Origin: a virus
DNA: 51,901 bases
IMG/VR virus record: IMGVR_UViG_3300009658_000001
Reading direction: 5' to 3' (one strand)
The translations under genes and the position numbers were made by a program. Under the pieces are notes generated by a model that saw nothing but the letters and a program-made list of their open reading frames with translations, did not search any database and had not been told where the DNA came from. Shown here in pieces: positions 9,673 to 30,489 of the stretch; the first letter of the stretch is position 1; each line of letters begins with the position of its first letter.

Positions 9673-11529
9673 ATGCACGCACTTGACCTCGAAACGAGTT
9701 CGATCTCCGGCGACCTGTCCGACTACATGGCCTTGGAGCCATGGCGAGCGCGCCAGGGCAAGGGCTTCATCAGCTCACTGCACGTGCACGGTGACGTGCA
9801 CGACATCCATATCAAACGACCGACGCGCGAACAGTTGATTGAAGTGCTGGAGAAATTGAGGGGCGAGGAGGTGTACGCGCACTTCGCGCTCTTTGACGTG
9901 GCGTGGCTCATCGCGTCGATCGAACCGAACCGACTCGCTCCACTGCACTCCGCGATCAAGGGCGTGCGCTGGCGAGACACGGCGCTCCTTACCAAGTGGT
10001 GCATCAACGGTCGCAAGAGCGAGTACTTCAGCTACTCTCTGCTGAACATCATCTACACGTTCAAGGACAAGCTCGGTCACGACGGCGCCGAGGAGTTCGT
10101 GCGCATGAAGCAAGCGCAGACCCTCGTCGCGGACGATCCGTACTGGGAAGAGCGGGGTCGCCAGGACGTGCTGTGGACCTACCGCCTTGCGAAGTTCATG
10201 GAGACGCAGTTGCCGCCCCCCTGCAAGCGCGGCTACGTGATCGAGGCGCGCGCCATCGCGCAGACCGCTAACAGCTGGATGATAGGGATATACGTCAATG
10301 AAGCGAACCTCAAGATCGCGGAGTCCCAAATCGAGTCCGACATCGTCGCCGGATGCGCAGCTCTTGGACTTACAGAATCGGTTGTTTCAAGTCCAGCGCA
10401 ACTTGGCCGAGTTGTCTTTGGCAGTTGGGGATTTGAGCCAATTGCTCGTACTCCTACTGGACAGCCAAAGGCGGACGCTGATACTTGGATCGTCCTTGCT
10501 CATGCGACTGGAGACCAACGACTCCGAACTCTCCTCAAAACCCGTCAAGCACTGACGCTCAGGAGCAAGTACATCCGCACGGTGTACGACGCACTGGCCC
10601 GCACGGGCGACGGCTTCATGTACGGCAAGCCGCTGCTCTTCGGCACGTCCTCCGGTCGACTGACGTACAGCTCTGAGACTGTGTCCGGCGTCAAGGTGAG
10701 CATGGCTCAGCACCAGATTCCTCGCAAGGACAAGATCATTCGGGCCTTTCTCTGCCCACCGCCTGGCACCAAGCTGTTCGAGACCGACGCCATGGCGCAG
10801 GAGTCCCGCATCATGGGTATCTGGTCCGGCGACGAGGAGATCATCCGCATCTTCAACGAGGGGATCAACTTCCACGCGAGCATGGCCGCTGAGATATACG
10901 GAATGGCCTACGAAACGTTCATGGAGGGCTACAAGCAGGAGTCGACCGAAGGGCTCGAGGGCGTGTTCACCGAGCGCAGGCAGTACGGCAAGCTTACGAA
11001 CCTCTCCTGCAACTTCCGCATCGGTGGCAAGAAGCTCGCGCACAAGGCTCTCGTCGACTACGACACATACACGTCCGAGGCGGACGGTCGGAAACTCGTG
11101 AACACCTTCAAGCAGAAGTACCGGCGCGTGCCTGAGTACTGGGACAACATCGTCGCCTTCGCCAAGCAGTATGGGTACTCGTACACCCTTGCTCAGCGCC
11201 GTTGGAAGGCGCCGAAAGAGATGCTCAACAGCTCCGACGCGTGGAAGGTCGAGGGCACGGTGATCAGTCACCCGATCCAGGGGACAGGCGGCGAGATGGC
11301 TCTGGCGGCGATGTCGTCCGTGCCGGACGAACTGCTGCAGATGAGTCTGCACGACGGCCTCTTCTGGCTCCTGCCCGAAGACGGTCGCGAGAAGGAGCAC
11401 GCCGCGTCGATTCTCGAGCGGATGAATGCCACGAACTACCAAGCACTGTGGGACCTGCCGAATCCGCTGCCGATCCCACTGCTGTACGAAGCTTCAAAGA
11501 TCGGAACCTCTTACGCAGATGTCAAGTGA
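9673..11529 (+). CDS. Family A DNA polymerase with 3'-5' exonuclease domain
   Basis: ExoI motif LDLETS at the N-terminus. Pol motifs are DAMAQESRIMG, RRQYGKLTNLSCNF and LHDGLFWL. Confidence 0.9.
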   Translation: MHALDLETSSISGDLSDYMALEPWRARQGKGFISSLHVHGDVHDIHIKRPTREQLIEVLEKLRGEEVYAHFALFDVAWLIASIEPNRLAPLHSAIKGVRWRDTALLTKWCINGRKSEYFSYSLLNIIYTFKDKLGHDGAEEFVRMKQAQTLVADDPYWEERGRQDVLWTYRLAKFMETQLPPPCKRGYVIEARAIAQTANSWMIGIYVNEANLKIAESQIESDIVAGCAALGLTESVVSSPAQLGRVVFGSWGFEPIARTPTGQPKADADTWIVLAHATGDQRLRTLLKTRQALTLRSKYIRTVYDALARTGDGFMYGKPLLFGTSSGRLTYSSETVSGVKVSMAQHQIPRKDKIIRAFLCPPPGTKLFETDAMAQESRIMGIWSGDEEIIRIFNEGINFHASMAAEIYGMAYETFMEGYKQESTEGLEGVFTERRQYGKLTNLSCNFRIGGKKLAHKALVDYDTYTSEADGRKLVNTFKQKYRRVPEYWDNIVAFAKQYGYSYTLAQRRWKAPKEMLNSSDAWKVEGTVISHPIQGTGGEMALAAMSSVPDELLQMSLHDGLFWLLPEDGREKEHAASILERMNATNYQALWDLPNPLPIPLLYEASKIGTSYADVK

Positions 11530-15955: not shown

Positions 15956-16159
15956 ATGGGAAATGTCAAAGAGATCGAACTCGCTGTGCGGGTCCGCACC
16001 GTGACCGAGAAGGCGATGCTCGTCAGCAACGACGGTGAGACCTACGTGTGGGTACCGAAGTCGCAGATCACTGACTGGTCCGGCTCTGAGGAGTTGGACA
16101 TGAGGGTCGAGACGATCTTCCTGCCCGAGTGGCTCGCCACCGAGAAGGGGCTCGTGTGA
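15956..16159 (+). CDS. Small hypothetical protein
   Basis: ATG at 15956 after gaggagg. The ORF is 67 aa and is GTGA-coupled to the next gene. Confidence 0.5.
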   Translation: MGNVKEIELAVRVRTVTEKAMLVSNDGETYVWVPKSQITDWSGSEELDMRVETIFLPEWLATEKGLV

Positions 16160-17781
16160 CGCGCGAACTCCTCGTGACCACGGGTCACAACAGCTCAGCG
16201 ATACTGCTCGAGGACGGGATCGTCCAATGGGGCTACGAGACTGAGCGTCTGACCGGCGTGAAGTCCGACAGCAGGTGGCCGCTCGAGCACCTCGAACGAT
16301 GGGGTCAGTCCGTCGGCAAGGTCGACGTGGCCTACGTCACGCACTGGGCGCCGGACGGGCAGTTGTCCAGCATGTCGGCGAAGCACTACGACCCACTCCC
16401 TCACCTCGAGGGCGTGCCCATCGTGTCGCTCAGCGCCGACCCGGCCGATGGTCGCACCCACCACGACACGCACGCTCACGCAGCGCTCGCCTACGCGGGG
16501 CAGAACTTTCCGCGAGAGGGCGCCTACTGCCTCGTCGTGGACGGATTCGGCGTGTGCGGCGAGCACTTCAGCGCGTACTCACTGTCGTCCGGTCAGCCGG
16601 AACTGGTGAAGCGCGTGCACGGCTACGACACCAGTCTCGGTCTGTGGTATCAGTACGCGACGGCGTTCCTCGGGCTCAAGATGCACGAGGACGAGTACAA
16701 GCTATTAGGCTACGAGGCCTACGTGGCGCCTGAGCTGTGGCCGAGGGTGCAGAAACTGGCGCTCCACACCTCGTTCGAATGGCTGGACGCGATGAGCAAG
16801 AGCGTCTTCGGGAGCGCCTACGACCCTCTGTATTCGACGGAGGCCCTGCCCAAGACGAAGGAGCTCGTCTTCAAGCGACTCCTCTGGGCCGCTCGAGAGC
16901 TCGGCGTCGAGGACAGCACGTCGTTCGAGGGCCGCGCGATTCTGGCGTGCTACGTGCAGGCCGTCCTCGAGAAGGTCGTGCTGAGCGTGGTGGGCGATCT
17001 GAAGCCGAAACACCTGCTCGTGAGCGGCGGCGTCTTCTACAACGTCAAGCTGAACCTCAAACTGCTGAAGTCGATCGAAGGCAAGTTCTGCGCCTACCCG
17101 CTCGCGGGCGATCAGGGCAACGCGCTCGGTCTGTACGCCAAACTGCACCCTCAGTGGAGGTTCCCGAACAACCTCTTCTGGGGCAAGCGAGTACTGCGCG
17201 ACGTGCAGGGCGTGCCTAACCTCTTCGTCGGCGACGAGGTGGAGGTCCTCAGCGCCGTCAAGCGACAGCTGCGGTCGGTCGGATTCGTCAACCTCGTGCG
17301 CGGCGACATGGAGTTCGGCCCGAGGGCCCTGTGCAACACCAGTACGCTCGCATTGCCGACCAAAGCCAATGTCGAGCGAATCAACGCGATGAACGACCGC
17401 AACACGGTCATGCCGATGGCGCCTGTCATGACGTCGTCGCGCTACCTCGAGTTGTTCGAGGACACGAAGCGCGTGTGGCGGTCACAGCAGCACATGATCG
17501 TGGCCATGGAGTACGCCGAGCACCCTCTGCCTGAGATGATGGGCGTCGCGCACGGGTACGAGCGGCCGAACCGCCACCACACGGGGCGACCGCAAGTCGT
17601 CGGCGACGACCCGTTCATGACGTCACTGCTGGACGAGTTCGGCGGCGTGCTGATCAACACAAGTTTCAACTATCATGGGAGGCCGATCGCCCTCGGAACC
17701 GACTCTATCGTGAGCAACCACATGGCGATGCTGGACCGTGAGCCCAGCGTCGTCACCACCGTCGTAAGGAGTGACAATTGA
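16156..17781 (+). CDS. NodU/CmcH-family O-carbamoyltransferase
   Basis: N-terminal TTGHNSSAILLEDG...ETERLTGVK, HHDTHAHAA and LVVDGFG, plus C-terminal RGDMEFGPRALCNTS and INTSFNYHGRPI. All are typical of carbamoyltransferase N and C domains. Confidence 0.85.
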   Translation: MTRELLVTTGHNSSAILLEDGIVQWGYETERLTGVKSDSRWPLEHLERWGQSVGKVDVAYVTHWAPDGQLSSMSAKHYDPLPHLEGVPIVSLSADPADGRTHHDTHAHAALAYAGQNFPREGAYCLVVDGFGVCGEHFSAYSLSSGQPELVKRVHGYDTSLGLWYQYATAFLGLKMHEDEYKLLGYEAYVAPELWPRVQKLALHTSFEWLDAMSKSVFGSAYDPLYSTEALPKTKELVFKRLLWAARELGVEDSTSFEGRAILACYVQAVLEKVVLSVVGDLKPKHLLVSGGVFYNVKLNLKLLKSIEGKFCAYPLAGDQGNALGLYAKLHPQWRFPNNLFWGKRVLRDVQGVPNLFVGDEVEVLSAVKRQLRSVGFVNLVRGDMEFGPRALCNTSTLALPTKANVERINAMNDRNTVMPMAPVMTSSRYLELFEDTKRVWRSQQHMIVAMEYAEHPLPEMMGVAHGYERPNRHHTGRPQVVGDDPFMTSLLDEFGGVLINTSFNYHGRPIALGTDSIVSNHMAMLDREPSVVTTVVRSDN

Positions 17782-18176
17782 CTGACATCATCGACCAAAT
17801 TTTTGACTTCAACGAGCAAGTCATCGGCACGGGCGACGTGCCGTTGAACGCCTTGACCGAGAAGCAGCACAATTGGACGCAGGCCTTCTGTGCCGAGGAG
17901 CTGATCGAGCTGCGCGAGGCCTTCGAGGCGCAGGACATCGTCAAGATGGTGGACGCTGTGGGCGACCTCATCTACGGCGCGATGGGCACGTTCAAGAAAA
18001 TGGGCCTCACGCGCGAACAGGTCGGCGCGGCCTTCACCGCGATCCACACGGCCAACATGACCAAAAAGCGCGGTGACAAGGGACGTGGCTCCGACGAGGA
18101 CGCCACTAAGCCGGCGGACTTCGTGCCGCCCGAGGAGGCGATCGGTCACATCCTGTTCGGCGAGGTCGACGCATGA
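17778..18176 (+). CDS. All-alpha NTP pyrophosphohydrolase (MazG/HisE-like), candidate dCTPase
   Basis: TTGA overlap start. The EELIELREA...VDAVGDLIY...AIHTANMTKK pattern is that of MazG-like phage NTP-PPases. Confidence 0.65.
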   Translation: MTDIIDQIFDFNEQVIGTGDVPLNALTEKQHNWTQAFCAEELIELREAFEAQDIVKMVDAVGDLIYGAMGTFKKMGLTREQVGAAFTAIHTANMTKKRGDKGRGSDEDATKPADFVPPEEAIGHILFGEVDA

Positions 18177-18742
18177 GCCGGATCGTGCTGGAGGGGCCAG
18201 ACCACGCCGGCAAGACCACGCTCGCGAAGCGGCTGTGCACGATCACCGGTGCCAAGTACCACCACCCGGGCGGCGCACCCGCCGACGAGACGGCGGAGCG
18301 GGCGTGCCTCATGGAACAGCAGCTCCTGATCGAGCGCGCGGGCCCGCTCGTCCTCGACCGCGTCACGTGCGTATCGCAGCAGGTGTACAACCCGAACGAG
18401 GCCCTCGACCCCGTGCGGACCCGCTGCCTGGACACCATGTGCACGTCGCCGTTCGTCTTTGTGGTGTACTGCCGCCCGCCGAACGAGCACCTCGTGGACG
18501 TGGGCAATTACACCTGGCGCCCCGAAGAGACTGAGGAGCACCGCCAGAAAATCGTGACGAGGGCCTTCGAGTGGGTGGAGCGGTACGACCGCGTCATGGA
18601 GAAGGTGCCGCACCTGTCGTACGACTTCAAGGACGTCGCGGCGGCCGAGACGCTCGAGACCGCGCTCATCGGCGCGCTCACCGAGGACGGCCTCTGGATG
18701 CAGTGGCTGAGCGCAACGGTCCTATCGGGGGGTCGGAGATGA
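18173..18742 (+). CDS. Thymidylate-kinase-like dNMP kinase
   Basis: ATGA overlap start. It has the P-loop LEGPDHAGKTTLAKRL and a DRV..SQQVY motif. Confidence 0.7.
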   Translation: MSRIVLEGPDHAGKTTLAKRLCTITGAKYHHPGGAPADETAERACLMEQQLLIERAGPLVLDRVTCVSQQVYNPNEALDPVRTRCLDTMCTSPFVFVVYCRPPNEHLVDVGNYTWRPEETEEHRQKIVTRAFEWVERYDRVMEKVPHLSYDFKDVAAAETLETALIGALTEDGLWMQWLSATVLSGGRR

Positions 18743-19545
18743 GGCTGGTCAGGACCCCGTTCAACCGCGACACGTTCTACGAGGCCTATCAAGCGGTCAT
18801 GCTCGCGCACGAGTCGAGGCCTCGGGGCCAGCTCGTGCGCGACCTCCGCGGGGTGTGCCTCGTGTTCGACCTCGACCAGCCTCTGCTGACGTCGTTCGAG
18901 GACCGCAAGCTGAACCTGAACTACTGCAAGCGGGAGTGGCTGTGGTACCTCGGCGCTGACCCTTACGACGACAGCATCGTCGAGCACGCCAAGATGTGGG
19001 CCAAGTTGAAGCAGCCGGACGGCCGCTACCTCAGCAACTACGGCCAGTACGTCTTCGGCGGGCGCTCGAGTCAGTTCGCGTACGCGGTGCACCAGCTGCG
19101 GGTCGACCCTGACAGTCGCAGGGCGAGCATCGTGCTGCTGGACCGCGACCACCTGTTCTTCGAGAACGTCGACACGGTCTGCACGTACGCCATCAACTTC
19201 GCGATCGTGCGGGGCCGCTTCAACATGACGGTGCACATGCGCAGCAACGACGTCGTGTTCGGCCTCACCAACGACGCGTTCTGCTTCTCGCAGATCGCGG
19301 AGTTCGCGTACCAGAAGCTGTTGCAGTGGCACCCGAACCTGCTGCGCGGCGAGTACGTCCACATCGCCGACTCGTTGCATGTGTACGAGCGGCACTTCGA
19401 GATGCTCGAGCGAATCCTGGAGAGCCCGAAATGGTCGCCGATCGACGTGCCTCGCCCCACGTTGGCAGAGGTGCGGAAGCTGATCAGTTCGCGCGGTCAA
19501 GAGGGTGAGGGAGTGTACTGTGACTGGCTCAAGACCGTCGATTGA
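18739..19545 (+). CDS. Thymidylate-synthase-fold dCMP hydroxymethylase (T4 gp42-like)
   Basis: ATGA overlap start. SNYGQYVF, DPDSRRASIVL, DTVCTYAINF, HMRSNDVVFGLTNDAF and SLHVYERHF parallel T4 gp42 (MRSNDVVFGFRNDYAW) as recalled from memory. An Asp occupies the base-specificity position. Confidence 0.8.
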   Translation: MRLVRTPFNRDTFYEAYQAVMLAHESRPRGQLVRDLRGVCLVFDLDQPLLTSFEDRKLNLNYCKREWLWYLGADPYDDSIVEHAKMWAKLKQPDGRYLSNYGQYVFGGRSSQFAYAVHQLRVDPDSRRASIVLLDRDHLFFENVDTVCTYAINFAIVRGRFNMTVHMRSNDVVFGLTNDAFCFSQIAEFAYQKLLQWHPNLLRGEYVHIADSLHVYERHFEMLERILESPKWSPIDVPRPTLAEVRKLISSRGQEGEGVYCDWLKTVD

Positions 19546-20038
19546 CGAGTACTTCCTGCAAATGGCGGAGTTGGCCTCGAGCCGGGCCACCTGCCGCCGC
19601 AGGGCCGTCGGCTGCGTGCTCGTCGACGGGGCGAACCACGTGCTCAGCACCGGCCACAACGGCGTTGCCAAGGGGCTCCCTCATTGCAACGAAGTCACGG
19701 AAACGCTCTCGTTCGAGTCCGTCAACGGTCGACGCCCCGAACACTGGGAGGAGCGGTCGATCAAGGTCTACGGCCACTCGTGCCCAGGCGCTGCGTGCAA
19801 GCCGGGCGAGGGCCTCCACCTGTGCGAGGCCATCCACGCGGAGCAGAACGCGCTCGTGCAGTGTCGTGACACCTCCGCCGTTTTCACAGTTTACTGCACC
19901 GCCAGTCCGTGTGTGCAGTGCATGCGCCTGATCCTCGGGACAGGGGCCAAGCGCATCGTCTTCCGCCAGGAGTATCCACATGCCCAATCGAAAGAACTCG
20001 CGGAGCGCGCCGGAATCGAGTGGCTACGTCTTGGCTGA
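19520..20038 (+). CDS. dCMP deaminase
   Basis: Zinc motifs HAEQNA and SPCVQC. The GTG at 19520 follows gagggag; an alternative GTG lies at 19505. Confidence 0.85.
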   Translation: MTGSRPSIDEYFLQMAELASSRATCRRRAVGCVLVDGANHVLSTGHNGVAKGLPHCNEVTETLSFESVNGRRPEHWEERSIKVYGHSCPGAACKPGEGLHLCEAIHAEQNALVQCRDTSAVFTVYCTASPCVQCMRLILGTGAKRIVFRQEYPHAQSKELAERAGIEWLRLG

Positions 20039-20284: not shown

Positions 20285-21394
20285 ATGCTTTACGAAGTGA
20301 AAATGTGGCGCAGGAACGCGCTGGGCCTTGGCACATGGAGGGTGTACGGCCTGCCGCCCGACAACCGGTCGAGGGGCCGCGTGGTGATCATGCACGCATC
20401 CACCGAGGGCGGCTCCGAGATCTCGCACGTGGACGACGTGTTCGTCAACAAATCAGGTCGCACCATCGAAGAGCAAATGAAGCTCGAGATAGACTCTCGC
20501 TGCTCCCGCATGCGGGACAAGGGCTACAAGCTGTCCCGCGAAGAGGCCTTGCAGGGCGCGACCAATCAGCTCGGACTAATCAACCCGATGCTCGCGCAGA
20601 AGGTGCAGGACGTGAGGCTCACGGCCGCCGACTTCGCCGCGAACGGTGCGTTCGTACAGCCCAAGTACGACGGGCACCGCTGCCTCGTGACCAAGCGGGA
20701 CGGTGACATGCTGGCGTACAGCCGCAAGGGCAAGCCCATCGAGACGATCGGCCACGTGCTCGAGCAGCTGTACCCGATCATGCAGGACGGTGACACGTTC
20801 GACGGAGAGCTGTACGTGCACGGCCAGCCGCTGCAGGCCATCTCGAGCCTTATCAAGCGCGATCAGGCCGGGAGCCGTGCCCTGACCTTCAGGTGGTACG
20901 ACCTGTGCGACCTGAAGCGCGTCTTCCGCGACCGCTACAACCTCATGGTGGATCTGCACGCGAGCGTGGTCGACAAGTCGGCCGTGCAGCTGACGCCCAC
21001 CGGGCGCGTCGACAGCATGTCCAAGGTCTACGACTTCTTCCGCAAGTGTCGCCAGAAGGGGTACGAGGGCGCGATGCTCAGACTCAGCAGAGCCGGTTAC
21101 GAGACCGCCAGACGAGCCAGTCAACTGCTCAAAGTCAAGGAGCGGGAGGACTGCGAGGTCACGACGATCGGCTGTAAGCCATCGGCGCGCGGGTGGGCCG
21201 TGCTCAGGGTGCGCGCCGATTGGGGAGCGGAGTTCGACGTGTCGGCCCCCGGCAGTGTAGACGAGAAGGTCGAGGTGTTGAAGAACTACGAGGAGCGGTA
21301 CCACAACCGGCGGCTCACCGTCGAGTACGCTTGTCTGACGACCGAGCGGGTACCGTTTCACTGTGTAGCGGTGCGCTGGCACGAGGAGGTGTGA
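20285..21394 (+). CDS. ATP-dependent DNA ligase
   Basis: Adenylation motif QPKYDGHRC and an RBS (aaaggagag). Confidence 0.85.
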   Translation: MLYEVKMWRRNALGLGTWRVYGLPPDNRSRGRVVIMHASTEGGSEISHVDDVFVNKSGRTIEEQMKLEIDSRCSRMRDKGYKLSREEALQGATNQLGLINPMLAQKVQDVRLTAADFAANGAFVQPKYDGHRCLVTKRDGDMLAYSRKGKPIETIGHVLEQLYPIMQDGDTFDGELYVHGQPLQAISSLIKRDQAGSRALTFRWYDLCDLKRVFRDRYNLMVDLHASVVDKSAVQLTPTGRVDSMSKVYDFFRKCRQKGYEGAMLRLSRAGYETARRASQLLKVKEREDCEVTTIGCKPSARGWAVLRVRADWGAEFDVSAPGSVDEKVEVLKNYEERYHNRRLTVEYACLTTERVPFHCVAVRWHEEV

Positions 21395-25414: not shown

Positions 25415-25452
25415 TCAAAGCGGTGTACACCTCGACCGAGCCGTCGTACAAT
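25413..25452 (+). promoter_or_regulatory. Sigma70-like promoter, class I
   Basis: GATCAAAGcggTGTACA, a 17-nt spacer, then TACAAT (25447-25452). The first 22 nt are identical to the promoter at 23660. Confidence 0.65.
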
Positions 25453-27085: not shown

Positions 27086-27439
27086 ATGGCGACCAAGAAA
27101 CAAGAGCTCGTGCACGGCTGCTTCGCAGACGCGCACGACGGCGAGCCGCTGTTCGTGCTGCGCAGCACGGACCCCCGCGCGCCGGCCGTGGTGCGAGAGT
27201 GGGCCCGGCTGTACCTCGCGAACCGCGTGAGAGCGCTGAGGGACCCCGGCGAAGGCGCCCCCGAGGAGGCCCGCGCCGCCTACGAGGCGGAGCTGGCGCG
27301 GCGCGAGGCGAAGTACGTCGAGGCCAACGAGCTCGCCGACCGCATGGACGCGTACCGCCAAGCGCTCGAGGGCGCCGAGGCGAGCGGAATGGACCCGCAG
27401 GGCTGTCGCGAGGTCGCGGCGCGCGCGGTCGCGCCATGA
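27086..27439 (+). CDS. Hypothetical protein
   Basis: 117-aa ORF with an RBS (aaggagg). Confidence 0.5.
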   Translation: MATKKQELVHGCFADAHDGEPLFVLRSTDPRAPAVVREWARLYLANRVRALRDPGEGAPEEARAAYEAELARREAKYVEANELADRMDAYRQALEGAEASGMDPQGCREVAARAVAP

Positions 27440-28227
27440 TGACCGCCCACCTCGACGACTACACCGTCAAGGTCCACGAGCACGGCTTCGTGCGGCTGCG
27501 CAACTGCGCCGGCCCCACGCGGCGCGACGAAATCGTGACGGTCTTCGAGGACTCACAGGTCCCGTCCATCGTCAGGCACTTCGACGCGGACGACGTCGAC
27601 CCCGCGCAGGCGGCCCGCATGTCGTTCGGCGGCATGGGCAAGGAGCGCTCGCGCGACGCGGACCTCAAGCTCGCCGCCTACCTCATGCGGAACGCACACA
27701 CGAGTCCGTTCGAGATGGTGCAGGTGTGGCTCGAGATGAAGCTCCCCATCTTCGTTGCGAGGCAGCTCGTCAGACACCGCACGGCCCGCCTCAACGAGGT
27801 CAGCGGCCGCTACGTGACGCTCCCCGCGGAGTGGTACGTGCCTGCGCTGGAGGACGTCGTCCTACAGAGCGCCGACCGGAAGCAGGGAGGGCGCGCCGTC
27901 GACTTCGACGACCCAGAACAGGTCGCGTCGGCCATCGAGTACCGCACCCGGTTGCAGGAGTCGTGCGCCCGAGGGTACGAGGCCTACGAGAGGTCCGTCG
28001 GCGACGGCGTGGCCATGGAGCAGGCGAGGCTCAGCCTGAGCCTCAACCACTACACCCACTGGCTGTGGAACCAGGACCTGCACAACCTCTTCCACATGCT
28101 GAGCCTCCGCGACCACTCGCACGCGCAGCCCGAAGCGAGGGCCTACGCACAAGCCATCGACCAGCTCGTGCGGCAGGTGCTCCCCGAGTGCTTCCGCCTG
28201 TACGACGAGTTCCGGAGGCGCGCGTGA
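27436..28227 (+). CDS. thyX: FAD-dependent thymidylate synthase ThyX
   Basis: ThyX signature RHRTARLNEVSGRY. ATGA overlap start. The upstream part of the 503-aa track ORF was rejected. Confidence 0.85.
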   Translation: MMTAHLDDYTVKVHEHGFVRLRNCAGPTRRDEIVTVFEDSQVPSIVRHFDADDVDPAQAARMSFGGMGKERSRDADLKLAAYLMRNAHTSPFEMVQVWLEMKLPIFVARQLVRHRTARLNEVSGRYVTLPAEWYVPALEDVVLQSADRKQGGRAVDFDDPEQVASAIEYRTRLQESCARGYEAYERSVGDGVAMEQARLSLSLNHYTHWLWNQDLHNLFHMLSLRDHSHAQPEARAYAQAIDQLVRQVLPECFRLYDEFRRRA

Positions 28228-29747: not shown

Positions 29748-29977
29748 TCGTCGTGACCGGAGGGGCGACCGAGCGCCGCGGGCTCCTCGTACAGTTCCAC
29801 GAGGAGGACCTCCGCGAGCTGAAGGAGGCCCTCGACGCGCTCGAACAGGGGATACACCTCGACAACGCCCACGACCTCAACCGTGGCGCCCCGATCTCCA
29901 AGCGCTTCCCCGAGTGGGCGCGCCGACTCGAAGCCGCGATCGTCGCCAAACTCAACGACAACCGGAGGTTCCCGTGA
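29744..29977 (+). CDS. Hypothetical protein
   Basis: GTGA overlap start. 77 aa. Confidence 0.5.
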   Translation: MIVVTGGATERRGLLVQFHEEDLRELKEALDALEQGIHLDNAHDLNRGAPISKRFPEWARRLEAAIVAKLNDNRRFP

Positions 29978-30489
29978 TCGACCTCCCGACGGGTCGCTCG
30001 CCGCACGACCTCCTCCAGGAGCAGCAGGTGGGGCGGCCCAACGGCGTCTGGAGGGTCCTCGTCGTGTGCCAGCTCCTCAACCGCACGCACGGGCGCCAAG
30101 TGAGGCCCCTCGCGGACGAGCGCTACGGGGCGCCGCTCTTCGTCCGATGGCCGACGCCCCACGCGATGTCGCTCGCGCGACTCCCCGAGCTCCAGCTGCT
30201 GCTGAGGCCGCTAGGCTTCGCGGAACAGCGCTCGCGCAGCCTCAAAGCGATGAGCGCCCAGTACAACGCCATGCTCTTCGCCGACCCGGAATTCTGGCGC
30301 GGCTCCGAAGACGGTGAGTGGTGCAAGGGCCTCCAGGGCTGCGGACAGTACGCCAAGGAGTCGCTCGACTTGGTGGTTTACGGGCGACTGAGCGCACCGA
30401 CCACCGACCACTGGCTCACGAAGTACCAGCAGTGGCGGCTGAGCCAGGCCGCGGGCACCGCCGAACTTGACGACATGGAGGCCTCGTGA
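29974..30489 (+). CDS. MBD4-like HhH-GPD DNA glycosylase
   Basis: GTGA overlap start. SPHDLLQE, QLLNRTHG, LLLRPLGF..QRSRSL, LQGCGQYAKESL and DHWLTKYQQW parallel the MBD4 glycosylase domain as recalled from memory (LNRTSG, LLKPLGLYDLRAK, LHGIGKYGNDSY, DHKLNKYHDW). Confidence 0.6.
   Translation: MIDLPTGRSPHDLLQEQQVGRPNGVWRVLVVCQLLNRTHGRQVRPLADERYGAPLFVRWPTPHAMSLARLPELQLLLRPLGFAEQRSRSLKAMSAQYNAMLFADPEFWRGSEDGEWCKGLQGCGQYAKESLDLVVYGRLSAPTTDHWLTKYQQWRLSQAAGTAELDDMEAS

Follow-up and report, generated by a model that had tools for sequence, protein, structure and literature searches.

The stretch of DNA analysed here (the window, 51,901 nucleotides) is a tailed-phage genome with a G+C content of ~63% and nearly all of its genes on the plus strand. 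The virion genes found in it comprise those for terminase, portal, scaffold, capsid, tail tube, tape measure and tip protein, and the replication genes comprise a primase-polymerase, a family A polymerase, a PD-(D/E)XK nuclease, an SNF2 helicase and a ligase. It probably represents a near-complete phage genome, since the protein cluster that is 99% identical to the glycosylase under study includes a contig of 51,891 bases, near the window's own size. No cultured phage was matched when 8 kb of the window was compared by megablast, and a homologue of the glycosylase is absent from the nearest record (G001).

The gene under study lies at 29974-30489 (+) and specifies a stand-alone protein of 171 amino acids, hereafter P0001, which from its reading frame, alignments and structural model we assign to the MBD4-type HhH DNA glycosylases. 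A Shine-Dalgarno sequence, GGAGG, is found at 29963-29967 (+), 6 nt 5' of the GTG start codon, which itself overlaps the stop codon of the preceding ORF as GTGA. The N-termini of the homologues (M-I-D-L...) favour GTG 29974 over the alternative GTG 29914, and as homologues from 83% down to 35% identity share the same start point, the reading of 171 residues is considered correct. ORF 29974-30489 is a real gene, translationally coupled to its neighbours; it belongs to a run of coupled small genes that includes an Rv2179c-like exonuclease and the flavin-dependent thymidylate synthase ThyX (27436-28227, +). A promoter-like site is located upstream, at 25424, and a scan of the plus strand from there to ~31737 detected no terminator-like sites. 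The overlapping upstream ORF was considered as a conserved partner and rejected, as the relatedness of the 77-residue protein of the window to the 76-residue protein of phage Xp12 is undetectable (E 0.27).

A second group of genes bears on the base composition of this phage. A carbamoyltransferase with the Pfam domains Carbam_trans_N and Carbam_trans_C, predicted to act as a 5-hydroxymethylcytosine (5hmC) O-carbamoyltransferase, is encoded at 16129-17781 (+), followed by a ThyA-family enzyme (listed ORF 18571-19545, +) and by a dCMP deaminase identified by Pfam (19505-20038, +). The best PDB matches of the ThyA-like protein are CMP and dCMP hydroxymethylases, namely MilA and T4 dCMP hydroxymethylase, and the Asp of its GLTND motif corresponds to Asn177 of thymidylate synthase and to Asp179 of the T4 enzyme; these features point to a cytosine-specific, dCMP hydroxymethylase-like activity. 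Its true start is probably near 18730, since the listed ORF is overlapped by the one upstream and homology begins only from about residue 54. Yang et al. 2021 linked a module of this kind to 5-carbamoyloxymethylcytosine and validated the carbamoyltransferase step biochemically (PMC8670742), and the set of carbamoyltransferase, Asp-variant ThyA-like enzyme and dCMP deaminase seen here is that published 5-carbamoyloxymethylcytosine (5cmdC) cassette. The original prediction of a carbamoylated cytosine derived from 5hmC is thus well matched by the gene content: the cytosine of this phage is very probably replaced by 5-hydroxymethylcytosine, which would then be carbamoylated to 5cmdC. Ordinary thymine would be made by the phage as well, as it encodes ThyX, and ordinary dTMP (by ThyX) and modified dCMP (by the ThyA-family protein) appear to be made by separate enzymes.

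Between the carbamoyltransferase and the ThyA-like gene, and overlapping the listed start of the latter, there is an ORF of 189 amino acids (18173-18742, +) with weak N-terminal matches to P-loop kinases (dTMP kinase, E 0.012) and 44% identity to a counterpart in another viral contig, G002; it may be a nucleotide kinase of the cassette.

Family membership and active-site residues

The glycosylase domain comprises residues 2-163 of P0001 and was compared with that of MBD4 (mouse 411-554, human ~426-580; PDB 4EW4, 4EVV, 6VJW, 4DK9, 3IHO and 1NGN). As a single sequence searched against the PDB with phmmer, P0001 retrieves MBD4 chains only (E ~4e-5, residues 7-155 aligned), and with a family profile built from 81 relatives MBD4 reaches E 7e-37 (130 bits), far ahead of MIG (1e-13), endonuclease III (2e-11) and MutY (1e-10). 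The AlphaFold model, built with an alignment of relatives, has a mean pLDDT of 96.2, and in agreement with the sequence searches the top 16 Foldseek matches in the PDB are all MBD4 (TM 0.82-0.86). Superposition of the model on mouse MBD4 with VIA-align covers 141 of 142 residues with an rmsd of 1.7 A (Z 19.5), in contrast to Z scores of 13 or lower and TM values of 0.4-0.5 for MIG, EndoIII and MutY. The latter enzymes belong to the same HhH-GPD superfamily, and MIG (Mig.Mth) also removes T or U opposite G; they are, however, larger (~210-370 residues) and carry a C-terminal loop with four Cys and an Fe-S cluster. No such four-Cys [4Fe-4S] loop is present in P0001, which has three Cys in all (C32, C117 and C123) and ends ~25 residues past the catalytic Asp.

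The four motif blocks on which an MBD4-type identity had been proposed, LLNRTHG (34-40), LLRPLGFAEQR (76-86), LQGCGQY (120-126) and DHWLTKYQQW (145-154), all align with MBD4, and the sequence, profile and fold comparisons agree with the assignment, the best match being MBD4 in each. As judged from sequence and modelled fold, P0001 is a stand-alone MBD4-type HhH glycosylase. With the single sequence, Pfam HhH-GPD (PF00730) scores 22.1 bits against a gathering cut-off of 26.2, a precomputed match to this family being present in many close relatives; searches of PHROGs and PADLOC with the glycosylase gave no match, and that of NCBIfam merely one nth match of 12.7 bits.

P0001 and the glycosylase domain of mammalian MBD4/MED1 have in common the fold, the HhH hairpin, the absence of an Fe-S cluster, the catalytic Asp, a Tyr where bifunctional enzymes have Lys, the base-reading Gln, the Arg finger and a hydrophobic wedge. 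They differ in several respects. Identity is ~25%, and a Pfam scan of P0001 found no methyl-CpG-binding domain (MBD), the linker being absent too, so that the phage protein is the MBD4 catalytic domain alone and its architecture is not that of an MBD4 orthologue. There is an extra insert of 5 residues (~49-53), and the loop preceding the HhH motif is longer, at 31 residues versus 17 in the shortest members of the family. Finally, P0001 comes from a phage, and the main substrate expected for it would be deaminated hypermodified cytosine.

The equivalence of individual residues was established by counting along the HMMER alignments, with mouse MBD4 as characterised by Hashimoto et al. 2012 as the reference (PMC3458566). 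In the mouse enzyme the catalytic residue is Asp534, within D534-H-K536-L537, and the D534N variant is inactive; its counterpart in P0001 is D145, placed in the model directly before helix 146-170. Mouse Tyr514 contacts O2 of the base and Y514F is nearly dead; it corresponds to Y126, which follows the HhH hairpin (G122-C-G124, in GCGQY), replaces the Lys of the bifunctional enzymes and thereby marks a monofunctional one. Likewise, Gln423, which recognises thymine or uracil by O2 and N3-H and thereby excludes cytosines, is retained as Q15 (in LLQE). Around the flipped base, L35 corresponds to Leu440, which stacks on it, N36 to Asn441, the minor-groove neighbour of the Arg finger, R37 (in LLNRT) to Arg442, the gap-filling finger itself, and G40 to Gly445, which adjoins the C5 substituent. 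On the side of the orphaned guanine, L80 matches Leu480, which makes a main-chain contact to that base, and the wedge Leu482 is conservatively replaced by F82 (in PLGF). At the lid, W147 takes the place of Lys536.

An alignment of 173 relatives separates invariant from variable positions. D145 is conserved in 171, Y126 in 166 and Q15 in 158 of them, and the wedge position holds F or L. The Arg finger position is R in 88 of the 173, and the lid is variable (W in 46, E in 41, V in 25 and K in 16); because the lid of P0001 is this variable residue, here a Trp, and the finger is kept in 88 of the 173 relatives, details of substrate recognition may differ from those of MBD4. The cleft of the MBD4 active site is open to solvent around C5 (PMC3458566), and by analogy an active site of this type would have room in principle for larger 5-substituents.

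These data also correct a reading of the active site. It had been proposed that the catalytic Asp, taken to be that of the GNDSY motif of MBD4, is a Glu in P0001 (AKESL), and on that basis P0001 could be a catalytically dead or impaired protein that binds lesions. Position 129 does hold a Glu where MBD4 has the Asp of GNDSY, and close relatives have E, A or L there. This Asp, however, is mouse D517, 17 residues N-terminal of the catalytic one, and the position is non-catalytic and variable (D in 123, E in 28 and A in 9 of the 173 relatives), whereas the true catalytic Asp is the conserved D145. Clearly, the active site is intact, as D145, Y126 and Q15 are all kept and position 129 has no catalytic role, and a dead enzyme is hardly credible. 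In practical terms, P0001 should be treated as active and not as an Asp-to-Glu variant.

Distribution and association with cytosine-modification genes

MBD4-type enzymes had been thought unusual in phage genomes, which holds for cultured phages but not for metagenomes. Among 50,697 records of cultured phages, P0001 matched 11, all of them Xp12-type phages of Xanthomonas or Stenotrophomonas, and the MBD4-type family as a whole occurs in 18, the broader family adding Janthinobacterium phage Donnerlittchen, cyanophage S-TIM54 and Aeropyrum pernix spindle-shaped virus 1. A word-seeded search gave 33 relatives of P0001, and an exhaustive one 620 clusters (50% identity) with E values up to 0.001, most of them stand-alone proteins of 130-170 amino acids. 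The nearest ESM Atlas clusters are mostly from Uroviricota and some are green-algal, which we take as a lead only. BFVD contained one clear viral match, from a granulovirus, and a metagenome scan for relatives returned four short contigs only. Narrow peptide patterns run against cellular genomes (185,579 species) found no relative, which is weak evidence and does not show that the family is absent from cells.

In several of the relatives whose gene context was read, the neighbourhood is that of cytosine modification. The viral contig G002 carries a 50%-identical glycosylase plus the same cassette, with identities to the window of 57% for the carbamoyltransferase, 51% for the ThyA-like enzyme and 49% for the deaminase. 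In Xp12, AXL1, DoCa6 and Donnerlittchen the homologue stands directly upstream of genes for a nucleotide hydrolase, a ThyA-like enzyme, a dCMP deaminase and DHFR; the Asp variant of the ThyA-like enzyme (GLPYD) was verified for Xp12, AXL1 and DoCa6. In Xp12, 5-methylcytosine replaces all cytosine (PMC9206674). A further case is found in IMGVR_UViG_3300015214_000060 (G005), in which an ORF of 58 amino acids (L005:10025-10201) covers only the first third of an MBD4-type glycosylase (WRVLVCCALLNRT...) and has, just downstream of it, a MazG-like gene and genes for a ThyA with Asp in GLPFD and for a dCMP deaminase; from its sequence, the ORF looks like a decayed copy of the glycosylase beside a cytosine-modification module. 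The comparison of gene contexts covers a handful of loci and is uncorrected for phylogeny, and the link of MBD4-type genes to cytosine-modification genes is accordingly anecdotal.

The Xp12-type protein (Xp12 QNN97216.1, AXL1 gp65 UIS24763.1 and the 'endonuclease III' of Donnerlittchen) is 34-36% identical to P0001. Both are phage-borne, stand-alone proteins with the invariant Gln, Tyr and Asp, and both are linked to genes for a cytosine-specific ThyA-like enzyme and a dCMP deaminase. The Xp12-type protein nevertheless has a Leu instead of the Arg finger, keeps the Lys of the lid (DGKL), extends further at the N-terminus and is short in the pre-HhH loop. Its gene lies directly beside the 5-methylcytosine module, and the base carried by Xp12 is 5-methylcytosine and not a carbamoylated one. 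In the AXL1 paper the Xp12/AXL1 homologue is recorded as an ENDO3c-domain protein without a resolved function (PMC9206674).

Not every occurrence follows this pattern, and it may be asked if the enzyme is a general fidelity glycosylase for G:U and G:T mismatches, whose association with modification genes only reflects a block of nucleotide-metabolism and replication genes. Such a reading would account for the homologue of the T4-like cyanophage S-TIM54 (OP053362.1; L017:4277-4663), which has no cytosine-modification genes within its 5-kb flanks, and for that of a hyperthermophilic archaeal virus, Aeropyrum pernix spindle-shaped virus 1 (HE580238.1); it is also consistent with the position of the gene in the window, ~10 kb from the cassette and adjoining ThyX and the exonuclease. 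On the other hand, a phage would have little need for a general G:U enzyme, since G:U in unmodified DNA is already handled by the uracil-DNA glycosylase of the host, and 13 of the 18 cultured-phage records belong to the Xp12-type group (Donnerlittchen counted, as it has the same gene order), in which the gene abuts that of the cytosine-specific ThyA-like enzyme. We therefore regard general mismatch repair as an unlikely function.

In the depositors' annotation of DoCa6 (locus L015) the glycosylase gene is marked 'No hit', whereas the genes around it match those of phage Bosa; within Bosavirus the glycosylase gene may for this reason have a patchy distribution.

Probable repair of deaminated modified cytosine

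Thymine and uracils with a 5-substituent are not accepted by family-1 uracil-DNA glycosylases. When a C5-modified cytosine opposite G deaminates hydrolytically, the product would be thymine or a uracil with a 5-substituent, and the host would be unable to remove it, given the exclusion of both kinds of base by its uracil-DNA glycosylase. A phage-borne glycosylase specific for G mismatches would restore the repair route that is closed to the host enzyme. We thus consider it probable that P0001 is an active, monofunctional MBD4-type glycosylase that acts on the phage's own DNA and repairs deaminated modified cytosine opposite G. The activity itself, its substrate range (G:5-carbamoyloxymethyl-U, G:5hmU, G:T and G:U) and the repair role are what we infer from sequence and model. 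This function in fidelity, which the original prediction had put forward, is the best-supported reading, given the intact active site and the linkage to cytosine-modification genes, and each of the alternatives is less well supported.

In the mechanism that we propose, P0001 would flip the mispaired pyrimidine out of the helix, with Gln15 and Tyr126 reading its O2/N3-H face and in this way excluding cytosines. Arg37 would fill the resulting gap and Phe82 would be wedged into the opposite strand, upon which Asp145 would cleave the glycosidic bond. The abasic site would then pass to an AP endonuclease, presumably that of the host as none was identified in the window, followed by the phage family A DNA polymerase (9673-11529, +) as a possible gap-filling step and by the phage ATP-dependent DNA ligase (20285-21394, +) as the possible last step of a phage-borne base excision repair.

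In a variant of this function, the enzyme would serve as quality control of the modification pathway and remove T or 5hmU that is misplaced opposite G during replication with an altered dNTP pool, instead of the products of spontaneous deamination. The dCMP deaminase and hydroxymethylase together could yield 5hm-dUMP, and the gene sits among replication and nucleotide genes. Misincorporated 5hmU would nevertheless be paired mostly with A, and MBD4 is specific for G mismatches and does not process 5hmU paired with A (PMC3458566). Quality control is indistinguishable from repair of deamination on sequence alone, and we judge it very unlikely to be the main role.

A different proposal is that the glycosylase is directed against foreign DNA, as a weapon or exclusion factor that excises modified bases, such as 5hmU-derived hypermodifications of thymidine, from the DNA of competing phages or of the host. 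It draws on the analogy with anti-phage defences against modified bases, namely the Dag proteins, which are HhH-superfamily glycosylases, and the UDG-family proteins Brig1 and Brig2 (bioRxiv 10.1101/2025.10.29.685425 and PMC11078745). The phage would moreover be immune to an enzyme that acts on thymidine hypermodifications, as ThyX makes its thymine the ordinary base. PADLOC, however, gave no match, the recurrent linkage is with cytosine-modifying genes and not with defence genes, and the gene is translationally coupled within an operon for replication and nucleotide metabolism. P0001 also has the full set of uracil-reading residues, and the characterised MBD4 family is mismatch-specific (PMC3458566). 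Action against host DNA, which had been suggested as an alternative at the outset, is likewise unsupported, since MBD4-type enzymes act on G mismatches and the face that the conserved Gln reads is that of uracil/thymine. Taken with these observations, use as a weapon appears highly improbable.

The proposed repair of deaminated modified cytosine may extend beyond this phage. We advance, as a tentative and rather doubtful generalisation, that MBD4-type glycosylases are a dedicated companion module of phages with C5-substituted cytosine (5mC, 5hmC derivatives and 5cmdC), because C5 substitution makes the deamination products invisible to the uracil-DNA glycosylase of the host. Under the same proposal, the clade of P0001 would have adapted its variable lid (Trp147) and enlarged pre-HhH loop to 5-carbamoyloxymethyluracil opposite G, a base undescribed as the substrate of any glycosylase. 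No paper that recognises MBD4-type glycosylases in phages, or connects them with modified cytosine, came up in our literature searches, and neither HhH-GPD nor glycosylases are mentioned in the supplements of the MetaGPA paper.

If repair is indeed the function, hypermodification of a genome has a repair cost, which these phages would pay with an enzyme of eukaryotic type, and DNA modification and base excision repair would be newly linked in viruses. The unexplained 'ENDO3c' gene of Xp12, the classic 5-methylcytosine phage, would also gain a function. Enzymes of this size (~140-170 amino acids, without an Fe-S cluster) might tolerate bulky C5 groups, and could possibly serve as reagents for the detection of deaminated modified cytosines.
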